Assembly: GCA_964403585.1 (NCBI GenBank)
Contig: CAYOFQ010000001.1
Location: forward strand, 1,280,826 to 1,344,825
Source of the DNA: an uncultured Gammaproteobacteria bacterium
GTDB lineage: Bacteria > Patescibacteriota > Microgenomatia > JALYQM01
Reading direction: 5' to 3'
Length of the DNA stretch: 64,000 nucleotides
In this document: in pieces, positions 1 to 41,681 of the stretch
Layout of the letters: each line of letters opens with the position of its first letter
Position numbering within the stretch: the first letter of the stretch is position 1
The notes under the pieces: generated by a model
Seen by the model: the letters and a program-made list of their open reading frames with translations, nothing else
What the model was told of the DNA's origin: nothing
Database searches by the model: none
Made by a program: the position numbers and the translations under genes

Positions 1-1454
1 ACTTCATCTACCGGTATACACCAATATTTTTCAGATCAAGCATACTTAATTCAGAAGAACTCGCCTCAATTTATCACTTCCCGAATAAAGCCATTGAAAC
101 ACCATACATTTCCTGGCTAAACGCGAAACGGGCTGCCGCGCCGGCCAATATCCCGGCAAAAGGACTATACCTTGGTAAAAGCGTCTTCCGCGGAACTACC
201 CGCCCGATATTTATCGGTGACGACGATCGCCGCCGCCACATGTATATTATCGGTAAAACAGGTACCGGTAAATCCGAATTCCTCAAGCAAATGGCCATGC
301 AGGACATCAACGAGGGCAAGGGACTCTGCTTCATGGACCCGCACGGGACCGCTATTACTGACATCCTGCAACTCATTCCACCGGAACGCGCTGAAGACGT
401 TATTCTTTTCAACCCCTCCGACCTGGATTTTCCGCTGGGATTAAACTTGCTGGAGGCCGAAACTGAAGAACAAAAACACTTCATGGTTAACTCAATCATT
501 GGATTAATGTATAAGCTGTACGACCCGCACCAAACCGGTATTATCGGGCCACGGTTTGAACATGCAATCCGCAATGCCATGCTTACCGTTATGTCTGTTC
601 CCGGCAACACTTTTATTGAAGTCGTCCGCGTCCTTACCGATTCAAAATATATGCAGGAGTTATTGCCGCATGTTCAGGACCCGATGGTCCGACGCTATTG
701 GACAGACCAGATCGCCCAGACATCCGACTTCCATAAATCTGAAGTTCTCGACTATATCGTTTCCAAATTCGGCCGCTTCGTTACCAACAAAATGATGCGT
801 AATATTATCGGTCAAAACAAATCAGCGTTTGACTTCCGCAAAATTATGGATGAGAAAAAAATTCTCTTAGTTAATCTGGCCAAAGGAGAAATCGGCGAAG
901 AAAACTCTAATTTCTTGGGACTGGTACTCGTACCGCGCATTCTTGTAGCCGCGATGTCCCGCTCCGACGCGATCGCCAAAAATATCCCGTTCCCCGACTT
1001 TTATCTGTACGTCGACGAATTCCAGAACTTCGCCACATCAACGTTTGCCGACATTCTTTCCGAGGCTCGTAAGTTTAAATTAAACCTGATCGTGGCCAAT
1101 CAGTTCATCGGCCAGATGGAGGAAAATATTAAAAATGCCATTTTTGGCAACGTCGGTACCATTGTCTCATTCCGAGTTGGTGTTACTGATGCCAACTATC
1201 TCCAGCATGAATTCCAGCCAACATTTAATGAGCAGGATTTGATCAATGTTGAACGCTTTAACGCCTATGTTAAAACATTGGTGAATGGCGAACCGACACC
1301 GGCTTTTTCTTTGGATACAACCAAGGATATTTCAGTAGAACGTGCAATGATGAGTCCGGAACTCGCAGAAATGATCAAAGAACTTTCACGCTTGAAATTC
1401 GGGCAGGATCGCCAAACCATCGAAGTTGAAATGCAAAAACGATCTAATCTATAA
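1..1454 (+). CDS. Type IV secretion coupling-protein-like P-loop ATPase (VirD4/TraG/TraD family), 5'-truncated by window edge
   Basis: Reading frame is open from nt 3 with no stop; Walker A GKTGTGKS, Walker-B-like YLYVDEFQNF, followed by an R/Q-rich segment resembling the TraG/TraD C-terminal domain; stop TAA at 1452-1454. Confidence 0.6.
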   Translation, partial: FIYRYTPIFFRSSILNSEELASIYHFPNKAIETPYISWLNAKRAAAPANIPAKGLYLGKSVFRGTTRPIFIGDDDRRRHMYIIGKTGTGKSEFLKQMAMQDINEGKGLCFMDPHGTAITDILQLIPPERAEDVILFNPSDLDFPLGLNLLEAETEEQKHFMVNSIIGLMYKLYDPHQTGIIGPRFEHAIRNAMLTVMSVPGNTFIEVVRVLTDSKYMQELLPHVQDPMVRRYWTDQIAQTSDFHKSEVLDYIVSKFGRFVTNKMMRNIIGQNKSAFDFRKIMDEKKILLVNLAKGEIGEENSNFLGLVLVPRILVAAMSRSDAIAKNIPFPDFYLYVDEFQNFATSTFADILSEARKFKLNLIVANQFIGQMEENIKNAIFGNVGTIVSFRVGVTDANYLQHEFQPTFNEQDLINVERFNAYVKTLVNGEPTPAFSLDTTKDISVERAMMSPELAEMIKELSRLKFGQDRQTIEVEMQKRSNL

Positions 1455-1549: not shown

Positions 1550-1768
1550 ATGAACCAAAAAACCAAACTAATCATTTCTATTGGGCTTAATATTTCCCTG
1601 ATAATAACTTTAATCACAATACTCATTGGAATTTTCGGCACCACCGCCTTTGACTTTTTCTTATTTAAAAAGACGTTACCTACCATATGCACTGAATCTC
1701 AAAAAAACGGTACTGAGCTGCGTGCTATTAATCCGGACGGCACTACCGCCGACATATGCCAGTTCTAA
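1550..1768 (+). CDS. Small membrane protein (72 aa), hypothetical
   Basis: ATG ORF with N-terminal TM helix and two C-terminal Cys; TTGCTT-18-TACACT promoter-like boxes end 6 nt before the ATG (leaderless arrangement); no homology recognised. Confidence 0.3.
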   Translation: MNQKTKLIISIGLNISLIITLITILIGIFGTTAFDFFLFKKTLPTICTESQKNGTELRAINPDGTTADICQF

Positions 1769-3357
1769 GGTGCATATCGACCATATGCCTGGGCGGCAGG
1801 ATTTCGGGGTCGGAAATCTGAACCAAGTTGCGGATCAAGCCGCACATTAGCTCCACCACCATTACTCAATGAGGACGGCGCAACGCCGCTTGAACCGTCG
1901 CCGGCATTCTCATACGCACTGTTCGAGGTACCACCATTAGTCCGATCCGAAATATTGTACGAATCGCCGGATTTAGCTAACAAATTACGGTACATTTTTA
2001 CTCCTGATGTATCACCCGAAACCTGCATATTCGAAGGACCAAGATTATTATAAAACGTGTTGTAACGAACAGTTATATTTCTCGGACCACCACTTCCTGA
2101 AGGCGGACCCATTTTTACGCCGCGCCCGCGCGGACTGTTCGCAAAAATGCATCGCTCTATAATACCGTTGCTTGTCTCCGAAGCATAAATCAAATGATCC
2201 TGAACATCGGTATGTCCGCCATCGGTATTATCATGCATATAACAATTGGCTATTCTCCAGTTAGAAGCTCCTCCTGAAATAAGCACATTTGCATATCCGT
2301 GTGAAGGTCCGACCTCGCCATTAATATACGTCCACCCGTTGCCTTTTAAACTAACCATATGTGGTCCGTACGAATCGGACCCCCAGCGGAAATTTATACC
2401 ATCAATAACCGAACCACTGGAACCCGTCACCGATGAAATACCTTCCACCCAAACCTTTTCTCCGGGATACGCTTTCACTGTTGCCCCCGAAGGGATGGTC
2501 ACCGTAAGTTTTCCGTACGTTCCACCATGCACACACAAAGTTTGTCCGGAACCAAGTGAACTGATCGCCGATGCTAACGATTGTCCTGGCGAAACGGAGC
2601 TCCCCGAACAATTCCCCCCGCCGGTCACTGGCGGCAGAGTGAACAAAGTCGGAACCGGTGTTGCGGTTCGGTTTGGCGTCGGTGTTGGTGTAACCACTGG
2701 CGTCGGCACACTTACGACTCCTCCTGAAGAAGCTTTTAACGCCACCAGGTACATTGAATATGCCGGATTTTGAGCATCACTTGCCGCATGAAATTGCACG
2801 TTAGTACCTGAAGCATAATTTTTTGACCAGATATCATATAAACCGATTAATCCCTGCTCGTTCTTCCGCAATAAATATTGATTTATGTTGGATAAATCGT
2901 CTGTAGTCCCCCGTGTATAATTTTGCGAAATCCAGTTTGGAACACCAATCCCAGGTATATGACGGGTAAAAATATATACCGTAGCAGCTTTTTGCAACGT
3001 AAGTCCCCAATCGAATGTAGTCAAATCTTTAACACTGGCGTTTCCAAGTTGCACATACGGTAGATTAATATATGTCGATGCAGGATTAAAAAAAGTAAAC
3101 CGGCTATCATCACTGTACATCTGCTGTCCGGCAACTAAACAGCTTTTCTGCATAGTTGTAGTAAAAAAACTTGTATCACACGCAGCACTGGTTCGATCCA
3201 CTTGGCTAAACTCACCACGCTTAATCGGACCATACATAAGTATTCCAAGTAGAAATGTAAAAAATGCAGCCACTCCCACTACCGGAATATGTTTTCTAAA
3301 TTCAAACATGAATTTATTATCGAAAATTAAGCTACTGATGTCAATGCGACTGAGCAC
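1765..3357 (-). CDS. Membrane-anchored surface protein: conserved N-terminal module + Pro/Thr linker + right-handed beta-helix (pectate-lyase-like) domain
   Basis: N-terminal TM (HIPVVGVAAFFTFLLGILMYG), TPTPTP linker, Gly/Asn/Asp-rich C-terminal repeats typical of parallel beta-helix; N-terminal about 170 aa clearly paralogous to CDS 15378-17069. Track start is GTG; an internal ATG (MFEFRK, about nt 3309) is an alternative start. Confidence 0.65.
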   Translation of the reverse strand: MLSRIDISSLIFDNKFMFEFRKHIPVVGVAAFFTFLLGILMYGPIKRGEFSQVDRTSAACDTSFFTTTMQKSCLVAGQQMYSDDSRFTFFNPASTYINLPYVQLGNASVKDLTTFDWGLTLQKAATVYIFTRHIPGIGVPNWISQNYTRGTTDDLSNINQYLLRKNEQGLIGLYDIWSKNYASGTNVQFHAASDAQNPAYSMYLVALKASSGGVVSVPTPVVTPTPTPNRTATPVPTLFTLPPVTGGGNCSGSSVSPGQSLASAISSLGSGQTLCVHGGTYGKLTVTIPSGATVKAYPGEKVWVEGISSVTGSSGSVIDGINFRWGSDSYGPHMVSLKGNGWTYINGEVGPSHGYANVLISGGASNWRIANCYMHDNTDGGHTDVQDHLIYASETSNGIIERCIFANSPRGRGVKMGPPSGSGGPRNITVRYNTFYNNLGPSNMQVSGDTSGVKMYRNLLAKSGDSYNISDRTNGGTSNSAYENAGDGSSGVAPSSLSNGGGANVRLDPQLGSDFRPRNPAAQAYGRYAP

Positions 3358-3430: not shown

Positions 3431-3503
3431 GGAGCTATAGCTCAGTTGGTAGAGCGACGAGCTTATACCTCGTTGGTCCTAGGTTCGAGTCCTAGTAGCT
3501 CCA
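3431..3503 (+). tRNA. tRNA-Ile (anticodon UAU)
   Basis: Cloverleaf: acceptor GGAGCTA/TAGCTCC, D-arm GCTC-AGTTGGTA-GAGC, anticodon stem ACGAG/CTCGT with loop CTTATAC (anticodon TAT), T-arm CTAGG-TTCGAGT-CCTAG, discriminator A. Confidence 0.85.
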
Positions 3504-3535
3504 CAAAATTTACGCTCAATAAATACCCCATAGTA

Positions 3536-9528: not shown

Positions 9529-9538
9529 TCTTAATTCG

Positions 9539-9612
9539 TGGGCAATAATGGACTCGAACCATTGACCTCAGTCTTATCAGGACTGCGCTCTAACCACCTG
9601 AGCTAATCGCCC
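9539..9612 (-). tRNA. tRNA-Ile (anticodon GAU)
   Basis: Reverse complement folds as acceptor GGGCGAT/ATTGCCC (one G-U), D-arm GCTC-AGGTGGTT-AGAGC, anticodon stem CAGTC/GACTG with loop CTGATAA (GAT), T-arm AATGG-TTCGAGT-CCATT. Confidence 0.9.
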
Positions 9613-15377: not shown

Positions 15378-17069
15378 ATGAATGAAGAAAATGAAAGCAC
15401 ACTGCCGGCTTTTGTAATTATGGCCGTTGCCGGTATTTGCATTCTGATCATTGGGTTAGTCGTAACAGTATTTTCAATTGAACAGATCCAAAAAATAGCC
15501 GCCAATACTATTGCCTATTTTTTTGGCGCAGCCCGGCAAACCGACTCTTCATACGCTGCCGTTTGCAATAAAAATGCAGTTTCAGTACAAGCTCCATTTT
15601 CGACCACTGTAAACTGTATCGCCGACAACGGCATCATGTATCTGCCGGACAATCAGATACCCTCAATATTTCAATTTTTTGCCATCCAGCCAACGTACCA
15701 GAATGCCGTATTTATTCAAACACCCAATACCCAAATCAAAGATAATACGTCGCTCTCCTGGAGCGTGAATACAACATCCCCGGGAACACTCTACCTGATG
15801 ACACGACATATCCCCGGAATCAGTGCACCTGCCTGGATTCGCAATAATTACAATCGACTAACAAATGATGATATGTCTCAGGTAACACAATACTTCAAGC
15901 GAAAAAACAACCAGGGGCTAATAGGTATATATGATATATACGCTAAAGACGTAAACTCAGGACAAATAAATTTGCAGGGTGCTTCAGATGCTCAATCCCC
16001 TGCCTATTCCATGTATATTACAGTACTCGCCTTACAGTCTGCTACTGCCACAAGCAATCCCACCGCAACAACGAATCCGACTAACACTCCTGTCCCCACA
16101 GGACCACCGGGAGAACAAAAAGGATACATAGTAACTAATAATGAACTGCGTCAGCGCAAACAACTGGCCGATCAAGGACAGGAACCATATAAATCTGCCT
16201 ATGGACCTGTCATCAGCTACGCGAACAATATGCTTAACCAGAATCCATCACCCCAACAACCGCTTAACATCCCGGGCACCACCGGTCCGTTTGTTGACGA
16301 CTCCAACGCCGCCAATGGACTTGCTATTGCCTACGGGTTAACCAACGACACACGCTACGCTGCTAAAGCGAAAGAATTCATTATGGCCTGGGTAAACACT
16401 ACTAAATCCACATCCAACACCTGTCCGGACAGCGGAGGTTGTCAGACCTCATTAATAATTGGCCGGATGGCTCCTAATTTCGTCTTTGCCGCCGACCTTA
16501 TCAAACCGTCGGGAGTTTTATCGGCAGCCGAAGATACGGCCTTTAAGAACTGGTTACGTACGGTTATTCTCCCTACCGCTTCGGTCAGAACCAACAACTG
16601 GGGTGATGCCGGCACCCAGATGCGCGTCGTCGTCACCGACTATATCGGTGACCAATCCGGACTGAACTCAGCTATCGCAAAATTCAAATCCATGGTTGAT
16701 CTCACAGCCTCGGATGGACATATTCCTGAAGAAACCCGACGCGGTACCGGCGGTATTACCTACTCCTCGGGGGCAATCGGTTTTAGAGTTACCGTAGCAA
16801 AAGTAATGGAACGACGGGGAATAGATTTATGGAGTTATGGCCGATTTAAATTATCCGCCGATTATATGTCCAGATATATTCTCAATCCGTCTGCCTGGCC
16901 ATGGGCTTCAGGAGCAGGAACTAATGCCCATGCCTGGTGGGAATTGGCATACGCCAAGTGGCGGGAACCGGCTTACATTCCTATCATAAAATCTAAACGA
17001 CCGTTCGGAGTATACGAAAACACGCCACTCGAATTTAGCACTATGACCAATGGAGTACCACTACCCTAA
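15378..17069 (+). CDS. Membrane-anchored surface protein: conserved N-terminal module + Pro/Thr linker + alginate-lyase-like (alpha/alpha-toroid polysaccharide lyase) domain
   Basis: TM anchor LPAFVIMAVAGICILIIGLVV; N-terminal region (TRHIPGISAPAWIRNNY...QGLIGIYDIY...ASDAQSPAYSMY) paralogous to CDS 1765-3357; linker TSNPTATTNPTNTPVPT; C-terminal AAKAKEFIMAWVN...NNWGDAG...H...Y features of alginate-lyase/heparinase-II/III N-domain family. Confidence 0.65.
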   Translation: MNEENESTLPAFVIMAVAGICILIIGLVVTVFSIEQIQKIAANTIAYFFGAARQTDSSYAAVCNKNAVSVQAPFSTTVNCIADNGIMYLPDNQIPSIFQFFAIQPTYQNAVFIQTPNTQIKDNTSLSWSVNTTSPGTLYLMTRHIPGISAPAWIRNNYNRLTNDDMSQVTQYFKRKNNQGLIGIYDIYAKDVNSGQINLQGASDAQSPAYSMYITVLALQSATATSNPTATTNPTNTPVPTGPPGEQKGYIVTNNELRQRKQLADQGQEPYKSAYGPVISYANNMLNQNPSPQQPLNIPGTTGPFVDDSNAANGLAIAYGLTNDTRYAAKAKEFIMAWVNTTKSTSNTCPDSGGCQTSLIIGRMAPNFVFAADLIKPSGVLSAAEDTAFKNWLRTVILPTASVRTNNWGDAGTQMRVVVTDYIGDQSGLNSAIAKFKSMVDLTASDGHIPEETRRGTGGITYSSGAIGFRVTVAKVMERRGIDLWSYGRFKLSADYMSRYILNPSAWPWASGAGTNAHAWWELAYAKWREPAYIPIIKSKRPFGVYENTPLEFSTMTNGVPLP

Positions 17070-18246
17070 TATGAAAAAACATCAAAAACTGAGTATTAGT
17101 GCCTTTACATTAGCTCTTTTAGCCACCACTGCAGTAATAATCTATGCCATGAGAATAAATAATACTCTCGCAAAACCTGCAGTTGCAACATATTTCAAAT
17201 ATACCCCCGATGAAATCGCCCAAATCAAAAAAACCCCTTCAGTCAAATCCAATAGCGCCGTAAATTTACCGGTATTAGATTCGGTAATGTTTAAAGAAGT
17301 TAAAATAAATAACACCGAGCCGACATTGGCTTCGCGTTATTACGCCTATGTATTAGTTGCCCAAAAGGATGCCTACGCGCTTGCGGCTAATCACAATAAG
17401 GATTTTGACAGCATGAGCAAAACAAGTGACCAGGTCACCTGCGTATTTTATCCTGAGCGGTGCCCGCCACCGGTCACTCGGGAATCAGCCGAAGATACTA
17501 TCGCTAAAATCATTACTCAGAAAGTGTGGGAGAGATACAATCTCGATACCTTTCATACCGCCGAAGCGGTCAAAATGATGGAGCCTATCCCGGAAATATG
17601 GCATATCAACGATGTTATTACACCTGAAGCCGGTGCCTGGAAAACCTGGCTTATTACTGAGCCGGGAGACTTTCTGGCACCTTCACCACCAAATAAAAAT
17701 TCCAGCGAAGAAAAAATACAAATAGCCGCAGTTAAGAATGCTCTGAAAAACAATACTGCCGAGCAAAAAGAAAAAGTTACCTATTGGGCAGCCGGATCGA
17801 ACACCGCAACTCCTGCCGGATTATGGATTGAATTTGCCAACGAATATATGGCCACTCATCAAACACCACTGGAAAAACAAATCGAGGTCCGTTCCCAATT
17901 AGCGATGACGCTGGCCGACACTTTTATCTCCTGTTGGCATACCAAATACGTCTATTTATATGAACGTCCTTTCATGCGTAGTCCAGACATCAAGCCACTT
18001 ATTCAAACACCAAACTTTCCAAGCTATGTATCAGGCCACTCGGCAGTTTCTGCTGCCGCTGCGACGATTCTCTCCCACTACTTTCCTGAAAATAGCGAAC
18101 GATGGAAAAACATGGCCAGGGAGGCTGCGAACTCACGTCTATGGGCGGGAATACACTACCCGATAGATAATCAAGAAGGCCTGAAAATGGGTGAAAAAAT
18201 CGCCAATACCGTTATTGGACTAAAAAATACTCAACCGGTAGAATAG
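17050..18246 (+). CDS. PAP2-superfamily protein (vanadium-haloperoxidase/acid-phosphatase-like), membrane-anchored
   Basis: PAP2 motifs: YERPF (K/R-x6-RP), PSYVSGHS (PSGH), SRLWAGIHYPID (SR-x5-H-x3-D); N-terminal TM; an alternative ATG at 17071 immediately follows the upstream stop. Confidence 0.7.
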   Translation: MEYHYPNMKKHQKLSISAFTLALLATTAVIIYAMRINNTLAKPAVATYFKYTPDEIAQIKKTPSVKSNSAVNLPVLDSVMFKEVKINNTEPTLASRYYAYVLVAQKDAYALAANHNKDFDSMSKTSDQVTCVFYPERCPPPVTRESAEDTIAKIITQKVWERYNLDTFHTAEAVKMMEPIPEIWHINDVITPEAGAWKTWLITEPGDFLAPSPPNKNSSEEKIQIAAVKNALKNNTAEQKEKVTYWAAGSNTATPAGLWIEFANEYMATHQTPLEKQIEVRSQLAMTLADTFISCWHTKYVYLYERPFMRSPDIKPLIQTPNFPSYVSGHSAVSAAAATILSHYFPENSERWKNMAREAANSRLWAGIHYPIDNQEGLKMGEKIANTVIGLKNTQPVE

Positions 18247-41498: not shown

Positions 41499-41578
41499 GG
41501 GCTCGTAGTTTAGTGGTACGAATTAGGGACTAATTCGCACCGCGTTCCATCGCAGGGGTCCGATTCCCCTCGAGTCCA
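41499..41578 (+). tRNA. Non-canonical 80-nt tRNA-like element (possible degenerate or unusual tRNA-Ser(GGA)-like gene)
   Basis: Good acceptor stem (GGGCTCG/CGAGTCC, one G-U), T-arm AGGGG-TCCGATT-CCCCT and a GG-containing D-loop, but the central arm is a 6-9-bp palindromic hairpin CGAATT-AGGGACT-AATTCG whose loop lacks U33/R37; lies 27 nt upstream of tRNA-Pro. Confidence 0.35.
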
Positions 41579-41605: not shown

Positions 41606-41681
41606 CGGGGACTAGCTCAGTTGGTAGAGCGCAGCGTTCGGGACGCTGAGGCCGTGAGTTCGAGTCTCACGTCTCCGACCA
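41606..41681 (+). tRNA. tRNA-Pro (anticodon CGG)
   Basis: Acceptor CGGGGAC/GTCTCCG, D-arm GCTC-AGTTGGTA-GAGC, anticodon stem CAGCG/CGCTG with loop TTCGGGA (CGG), T-arm GTGAG-TTCGAGT-CTCAC, encoded CCA. Confidence 0.85.

Follow-up and report, generated by a model that had tools for sequence, protein, structure and literature searches.

Two proteins encoded within the window (i.e., the whole stretch of DNA analysed here, 64,000 nucleotides), herein called A and B, consist of a membrane anchor, a common module, a Pro/Thr linker and heads which are unrelated to each other. The common module represents a beta-sandwich family of its own, which appears, judged by the sequences found and by their few identifiable source genomes, to be confined to one deep-branching lineage of Patescibacteria, and which is joined there to a broad range of partner domains. 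Anatomy, paralogy, family, fold and lineage restriction of the module were shown in this analysis, while we infer that the module is most likely non-catalytic. As to its role, we tentatively favour that it serves as a portable attachment or targeting domain, with a lineage-specific component of the cell envelope as the most likely binding partner. The features of both proteins are compiled in Table 1.

Table 1. Coordinates of proteins A and B and of their parts, given in window positions.
Feature	Position	Strand	Remark
Protein A, open reading frame	1765-3357	(-)	530 aa counted from GTG 3357
Protein A, probable CDS	1765-3309	(-)	514 aa starting at ATG 3309
Sigma-70-like promoter match, TTGACA-17-GATAAT	3316-3344	(-)	11/12 consensus match only
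N-terminal hydrophobic helix of A, ORF residues ~24-45, IPVVGVAAFFTFLLGILMYGPI	3223-3288	(-)	Kyte-Doolittle 19-mer
Shared beta-sandwich module of A, ORF residues 57-215	2713-3189	(-)	
Pro/Thr-rich linker of A, residues 216-245, VPTPVVTPTPTPNRTATPVPT...	2623-2712	(-)	
Head A, right-handed parallel beta-helix, residues 246-530	1768-2622	(-)	
Protein B, paralogue with the same module	15378-17069	(+)	563 aa
N-terminal hydrophobic helix of B, residues ~11-36	15408-15485	(+)	Kyte-Doolittle 19-mer
Shared beta-sandwich module of B, residues 59-220	15552-16037	(+)	
Pro/Thr-rich linker of B, residues 221-246	16038-16115	(+)	
Head B core, Pfam PF05426 match, residues 306-507	16293-16898	(+)	
Whole head B	~16116-17066	(+)	

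The initial annotation of this DNA had described A and B as membrane-anchored paralogues having one N-terminal module in common, and this description was borne out. Pairwise BLASTP aligned residues 65-216 of A with residues 74-226 of B at 44% identity and 58% positives (E 7e-37), whereby the shared region proved to be real while its length, given earlier as about 170 aa, had to be corrected to about 155 aa. All remaining segments of the two proteins yielded E values of about 5 or more, hence the heads of A and B are considered unrelated, and as a P/T/S-rich linker directly follows the module in both proteins, the annotated order of a Pro/Thr linker and a fully different head holds as well. Within the whole window, tblastn with each module identified just the A and B copies, and tblastn with each head revealed no further copy of head A or head B. 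The membrane anchoring is reflected by the hydrophobic N-terminal stretches, for which Kyte-Doolittle 19-mer maxima of 2.24 (A) and 3.09 (B) were obtained.

The translational start of protein A is likely ATG 3309 in place of GTG 3357, as orthologues begin near the former and comparison with the consensus identified TTGACA-17-GATAAT at 3344..3316, that is 6 nt upstream of ATG 3309. The spacing between promoter match and start codon suggests that the mRNA of gene A is leaderless or possesses a very short leader. The N-terminal hydrophobic helix of A exceeds the typical length of a signal-peptide h-region and is therefore presumed to be an uncleaved signal anchor. The product of gene A would be a type-II-like, membrane-anchored extracytoplasmic protein, in which the N-terminal hydrophobic anchor is predicted to be followed by the 155-aa beta-sandwich module, a Pro/Thr linker of about 30 aa and finally a beta-helix head of about 285 aa.

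For both heads family assignments were obtained, which differ in their depth. Head A, when searched alone, matched the Pfam family Beta_helix (PF13229) with 26.9 bits (E 4.3e-6) and hence above the gathering threshold of 25.9, while the full-length protein A reached 17.9 bits with the same family and remained below this cut-off. For the orthologue of A from the MDV bin63 genome, precomputed hits to Beta_helix and Pel9A-like_beta_helix are available, both of which are marked as weak. A scan of metagenomes revealed distant relatives of head A (26-39% identity) with the NCY[IM]HDN motif in common, and three of the four relatives that were scanned gave matches to Beta_helix plus NosD with 39-80 bits, while L016, the remaining one, was without a Pfam match. 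Taken together, these sequence matches support head A as a real right-handed beta-helix of the PbH1 type, an assignment that is generic only. The earlier view of this head as polysaccharide-lyase-like therefore stands for the beta-helix and not for the lyase, since no defined lyase or hydrolase beta-helix family (pectate lyases, Chondroitinas_B, GH28) exceeded the Pfam threshold, the Pectate_lyase families and Chondroitinas_B gave no Pfam match even at E<=10, and the sole signal towards the PL1, PL3, PL6 and PL9 lyases is the weak Pel9A-like hit on the MDV bin63 orthologue. Searches with head A against PDB sequences gave just noise-level matches to Tse1 and LEC-6 and no relative, those against PHROGs no match, and tblastn against plasmid and phage records likewise no match; the AlphaFold model of head A, computed from an alignment of two sequences, was unusable (pLDDT 46.8). 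Head A may thus be an enzyme (lyase or hydrolase) or a non-enzymatic helix or adhesin. For head B the lyase-like character was corroborated: it matched the Pfam family Alginate_lyase (PF05426) with 78.3 bits (E 8.6e-22) against a gathering threshold of 22.2, and the match covers positions 56-275 of the 275 profile positions. By this solid family match head B is alginate-lyase-like; in PDB sequences no match was found at E<=0.01.

The module itself could not be given a name, just as was stated in the initial annotation. Using 46 aligned members, searches against Pfam at E<=1 returned scattered single matches only, none of them consistent, while NCBIfam and PHROGs gave no match and a sequence-profile search of the PDB returned nothing meaningful; in Pfam scans of A, B and further family members, also SLH, LysM, CW_binding, GW and SH3b gave no match. 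When 1.84 billion cluster representatives were searched exhaustively with HMMER, 54 proteins were identified at E<=1e-3, and 52 of these clusters reached E<=1e-10. P0053 (E 7e-5) and P0054 (E 2e-4) were rejected as true members, these being long proteins with repeated partial matches to positions ~55-98 of the module only. A word-indexed homologue search, carried out with a single sequence and then with the 46-sequence profile, recovered only the frameshifted orthologue P0001 and, in view of the 52 clusters identified exhaustively, greatly under-reports the family. A scan of metagenome contigs with a narrower module alignment yielded no match.

The distribution of the module was assessed in 185,579 species genomes (one genome each), which were scanned with two narrow peptide patterns, whereby eight loci were identified in two genomes possessing three and five copies. 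By sequence comparison, the organism from which the window originates is a Patescibacterium and both module-bearing genomes are its relatives. LepA of the window is 89% identical to LepA of the CAZHTP01 MAG, while its best named relatives (about 58%) belong to Candidatus Daviesbacteria, Microgenomates, Pacebacteria, Peregrinibacteria and other Patescibacteria. The contig of P0049, the most divergent member of the family, carries cNMP_binding, S30AE, TatD, YgjP and PHP_C in the same order as the MDV bin63 relative. The apparent confinement to one lineage derives from the two positive genomes out of 185,579, from their kinship with the window organism and from this shared gene order. The window lies on a contig of 1,573,555 bp and encodes an envelope set of the monoderm type (an LCP ligase for wall polymers, FemAB, MurJ and RNase Y) as well as sensing and metabolic genes.

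Across the family the architecture of A and B recurs with variations. An N-terminal hydrophobic helix was found in nearly all full-length members, and in about two thirds of the members, the window copies A and B included, the module is located 15-25 residues past this helix; 12 members carry it at the C-terminus, with 0-2 residues following. Linkers rich in P, T and S, 14-36 aa in length, connect the module to the remaining protein, and members consisting of anchor plus module and being devoid of a head exist as well (P0008, P0034). In an unbootstrapped neighbour-joining tree the modules of A and B fall into a clade with exclusively N-terminal placement and an RHIPG motif, while in a second clade N- and C-terminal placements are mixed, which implies repeated module shuffling.

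The wider search thereby confirmed the expected modular family with many heads, and it changed the picture of what these heads are. Pfam analysis of 44 full-length members revealed 16 Pfam families as partners, with Cyt-b5 being the commonest (7/44), followed by phytase, Metallophos and Beta_helix (three members each) and Alginate_lyase2 (PL7, two members), whereas PF05426, GH5, GH31, GH39, GH88, DUF4832/DUF4874, fn3 and Laminin_G were found in one member each; summing up the partner counts, about 40% of the heads are without a Pfam family. The assumption of a family restricted to glycan-degrading enzymes consequently does not hold, given the Cyt-b5-like heads and the phytases and metallophosphatases. 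No peptidoglycan hydrolase, protease or lipase head was identified among the 16 Pfam families on the 44 members, and as no peptidoglycan hydrolase is included, the idea of a host cell-wall attack by an epibiont, as raised earlier, found no backing. A partner spread as heterogeneous as this is typical of anchoring modules and not of substrate-specific carbohydrate-binding modules (CBMs).

Structure prediction with AlphaFold (AF2) on the 46-sequence alignment yielded an all-beta sandwich with one short helix (pLDDT 96.6, pTM 0.91), hence the module, which is found in CAZymes and non-CAZymes, is predicted with high confidence to fold independently. Two significant PDB matches of the module model were revealed by Foldseek: a stretch of about 150 residues of the GH2 beta-glucuronidase 6hpd (E 2e-5, TMq 0.69, rmsd 3.2, 14% identity) and a stretch of the GH138 enzyme 6hzf (E 4e-4, TMq 0.57). 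Among viral models the uncharacterised protein A0A2P0VNA9 from the giant virus Tetraselmis virus 1 was identified as best match (E 5e-6, TMq 0.70, rmsd 2.3). Identities of the module to these three proteins are only 10-14%. The matched regions of 6hpd and 6hzf are probably accessory beta-sandwich domains, and the resemblance derived from the model is one at the level of the fold only; a literature search for domain descriptions of 6hpd and GH138 did not turn up the identity of these domains. Within the module, positions Y25, R76, G116 and Y118 are invariant, and C17, R30, N50, K54, W61, P84, W86, R108, D119 and a final AxSMY strand are near-invariant, with Y147 being conserved as well. At least two Cys residues are present in the first 45 residues of 35 of the 46 sequences, and conserved residues and Cys together would fit an extracytoplasmic ligand-binding domain. 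The pI of the module ranges from 4.8 to 9.5 across members; as it is not uniformly basic, a simple polyanion-binding argument fails and was dropped, no consistent basic charge being seen.

In the model tentatively put forward here, the module would have been combined repeatedly with many types of extracellular heads within one lineage of Patescibacteria and would be placed either beside the membrane anchor or right at the C-terminal end. By binding to the envelope it would keep redox proteins and proteins for nutrient scavenging on the cell surface, with a wall-linked secondary polymer or an S-layer as candidate ligand, which is a guess, and with the SLH, LysM and choline-binding modules of Gram-positive bacteria as possible analogues. 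Binding to an envelope component is favoured because of the heterogeneous partners, with Cyt-b5-like heads being the commonest, the restriction of the module to one lineage while the heads are cosmopolitan, the frequently membrane-proximal position and the existence of head-less members. Several points count against it. As the proteins are already anchored in the membrane, an additional wall-binding module is not obviously needed; CBMs, too, classically combine a P/T linker with a location at either terminus; and the structural neighbours of the predicted fold are domains of glycoside hydrolases.

The latter two points lead to the main rival of envelope attachment, namely that the module constitutes a new CBM family which takes the heads to an insoluble or polymeric substrate, such as uronic-acid-rich EPS or algal or plant polysaccharide. 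We consider this reading rather unlikely. In its favour, besides the canonical layout, the best PDB neighbours of this beta-sandwich module are located within GH2 and GH138 enzymes, both of which act on uronic acids, heads for uronate polymers (PF05426, PL7 and GH88) are among the partners, and aromatic and charged residues are conserved. However, Cyt-b5-like heads are the most frequent partner, and phytases and metallophosphatases are found repeatedly; the family was found in one lineage, though its heads belong to widespread families; the module is membrane-proximal in two thirds of the members; and no match to an existing CBM family was obtained with Pfam on 46 members (E<=1), the PDB profile search or NCBIfam.

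Two further readings are improbable. One assumes that the module is an adhesin for the surface of a host cell, by which an epibiotic Patescibacterium would deliver enzymes onto its host. Some Patescibacteria are epibionts, the window organism belongs to this group and the proteins are surface-exposed and modular, but beyond taxonomy there is no positive support for host-cell adhesion. The module resides beside the bacterium's own membrane in most members, the 16 partner families lack the peptidoglycan hydrolases, proteases and lipases, and with a contig of 1.57 Mb encoding sensing and metabolic genes a strict host dependence is not evident. The other, to which we assign a similarly low probability, assumes an assembly domain that docks onto a scaffold, as in cellulosomes, or a sorting signal resembling the C-terminal domain of the type 9 system (T9SS). 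The 12 members with the module at their exact C-terminus, the many paralogues per genome and, in general terms only, the size and beta-sandwich nature recalling cohesin or CTD-type domains would be in line with this. Yet C-terminal sorting domains (T9SS CTD, sortase and exosortase signals) obligatorily occupy the extreme C-terminus, which only these 12 members would satisfy, while in two thirds of the family the module directly follows the anchor at the N-terminus and is thus a misfit with a C-terminal sorting signal; moreover, no scaffold with repeated partner domains was found, and in the loci examined no conserved neighbouring sorting enzyme.

That the module is itself catalytic, as a small jelly-roll enzyme or a redox domain to which the heads would be auxiliary, is very improbable: the four invariant residues, the near-invariant R, K, N, D and W positions, the head-less members and the precedent of CBM33, which was later reclassified as LPMO family AA10, speak for it, but the histidine brace of AA10 (a mature N-terminal His) is not present, as the module follows a long anchor and a variable spacer and has neither a conserved N-terminal His nor any His among its invariant and near-invariant positions, 155 aa are few for a jelly-roll lyase or hydrolase, the Pfam, PDB and NCBIfam searches revealed no resemblance to an enzyme family, and the partner heads are complete enzymes by themselves.

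Attachment to the envelope may be extended to a more far-reaching idea, which we regard as rather unlikely: a lineage-specific display system within a Patescibacteria clade of unusually large genomes, in which the module would attach no fewer than 15 kinds of exoenzymes and Cyt-b5-type redox proteins to an envelope polymer or S-layer specific to the clade. If true, a candidate-phyla-radiation (CPR) bacterium would possess an 'enzyme coat' comparable to anchoring of the SLH or cellulosome type, with a fold family unrelated to these as its building block. According to the usual description, Patescibacteria secrete very few proteins, and for activated sludge about 15 predicted extracellular proteins per MAG were reported as mean over Patescibacteria, Elusimicrobiota and Dependentiae (PMC11495043). 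The expansion of one private module over lyases, glycosidases, phytases, phosphatases and cytochrome-b5-like proteins is indicative of a lifestyle of scavenging at the cell surface. In practical terms, the module offers a search handle for the whole exoproteome of the clade, its ligand would serve as a probe of the composition of the clade's envelope, and a domain family with a confidently predicted fold would be added which current domain libraries lack. No general principle is altered by the finding.

Two kinds of known systems are suited for comparison. In modular CAZymes, such as CenA and Cex of Cellulomonas fimi with their CBM2, a terminal CBM is connected via a Pro/Thr linker, and the proteins described here resemble these in having a discrete beta-sandwich of about 100-160 aa with conserved aromatics, located N- or C-terminally and followed or preceded by such a linker, and in the Cys residues close to the N-terminus of the module (two or more in 35 of 46 sequences). 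They differ in being membrane-anchored instead of free, in occurring in one lineage only and in combining the module with partners that are not CAZymes, namely Cyt-b5, phytase and metallophosphatase. The second kind comprises the wall-attachment modules of Gram-positive bacteria, i.e., SLH, LysM, choline-binding and GW modules. Here, the likeness consists in one reusable, presumably non-catalytic module being present on many unrelated exoproteins, with several copies per genome, and in an envelope of the monoderm type, in the present case with an encoded LCP wall-polymer ligase, whereas the fold is different and each protein carries a single copy in place of tandem repeats. Exoproteins of modular build, in which an accessory beta-sandwich is joined through Pro/Thr linkers, are familiar in kind, while the module family as such (absent from Pfam, NCBIfam and PDB sequences), its apparent confinement to one clade, its expansion to several copies and the unusual breadth of its partners are new.

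For gene A, which encodes on the minus strand the protein joining the shared module to a beta-helix head, a promoter-like -10 hexamer was identified that ends 6 nt ahead of the probable ATG (window 3309-3344), an arrangement which, judged from the sequence, suggests a transcript that is leaderless or nearly so and places the listed start, the GTG at 3357, probably too far upstream. The gene neighbouring A (see the table) yielded borderline matches to domains of type IV secretion coupling proteins. Its counterpart in MDV bin63, the metagenome-assembled genome of a relative, encodes a DUF8128 protein of 780 aa with a faint DEAD match. Gene B, coding for the protein with the same module and an alginate-lyase-like head, overlaps its downstream neighbour and the two are therefore probably co-transcribed.

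Coordinates (window positions) of neighbouring genes and tRNA genes
Feature	Position	Strand	Remark
Neighbour of gene A	240-1454	+	Borderline TrwB_AAD_bind (20.7 bits) and TraG-D_C (21.5 bits)
tRNA-Ile, anticodon TAT (UAU)	3431-3504	+	Directly upstream of gene A
tRNA-Ile(GAT)	9538-9612		
PAP2 / VCPO_2nd gene (acid-phosphatase or haloperoxidase-like)	17050-18246	+	20-nt overlap with the 3' end of gene B
Fifth tRNA as called by Rfam	41499-41578	+	Rfam, 37.1 bits, E 3.5e-4
tRNA-Pro(CGG)	41606-41681		Just downstream of the Rfam-called tRNA

In MDV bin63 (JALYQM01 / GCA_030154765.1; L001 10001-11553, the same locus as L007) a single frameshift, located immediately behind the module's HIPG motif, divides the protein A orthologue into two genes that encode 191 aa and 328 aa. 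A second assembly, from Logan (run SRR18933249), has the identical break; the orthologue could be a pseudogene or reflect a sequencing error common to both assemblies. Among the proteins recovered by the module search, two long ones, P0053 (1852 aa) and P0054 (1276 aa), possess 4-9 repeated partial matches to the module profile, mostly at profile positions ~55-98; these matches could stem from a relationship between the repeats and one module sub-element, or else from compositional noise.

Cyt-b5 is the most frequent head within the module family (7 of the 44 full-length proteins), and on the contigs carrying P0049 (JGI 3300071358 and 3300071325) the phytase-plus-module gene adjoins a 148-aa Cyt-b5 gene and also resides beside a Ferric_reduct/FAD_binding_8/NAD_binding_1 membrane reductase. 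Taken together, these neighbours and the head frequency hint at extracellular electron transfer in the module-bearing lineage.

As to the tRNA genes, AUA is in bacteria usually decoded by a lysidine-modified CAU tRNA, and an isoleucine tRNA with a UAU anticodon is uncommon in these organisms. The fifth tRNA, called by Rfam, is absent from the ARAGORN output and may be divergent or degenerate.

The contig comprises 1,573,555 bp, the genome being large for a Patescibacterium, and the genes of the window include a HAMP/PAS histidine kinase, a periplasmic binding protein, a lactate/malate dehydrogenase-family enzyme, a spermidine-synthase-like protein, a carbamoyltransferase and an amine oxidase. 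This repertoire is richer than the minimal one with which the candidate phyla radiation is usually pictured.
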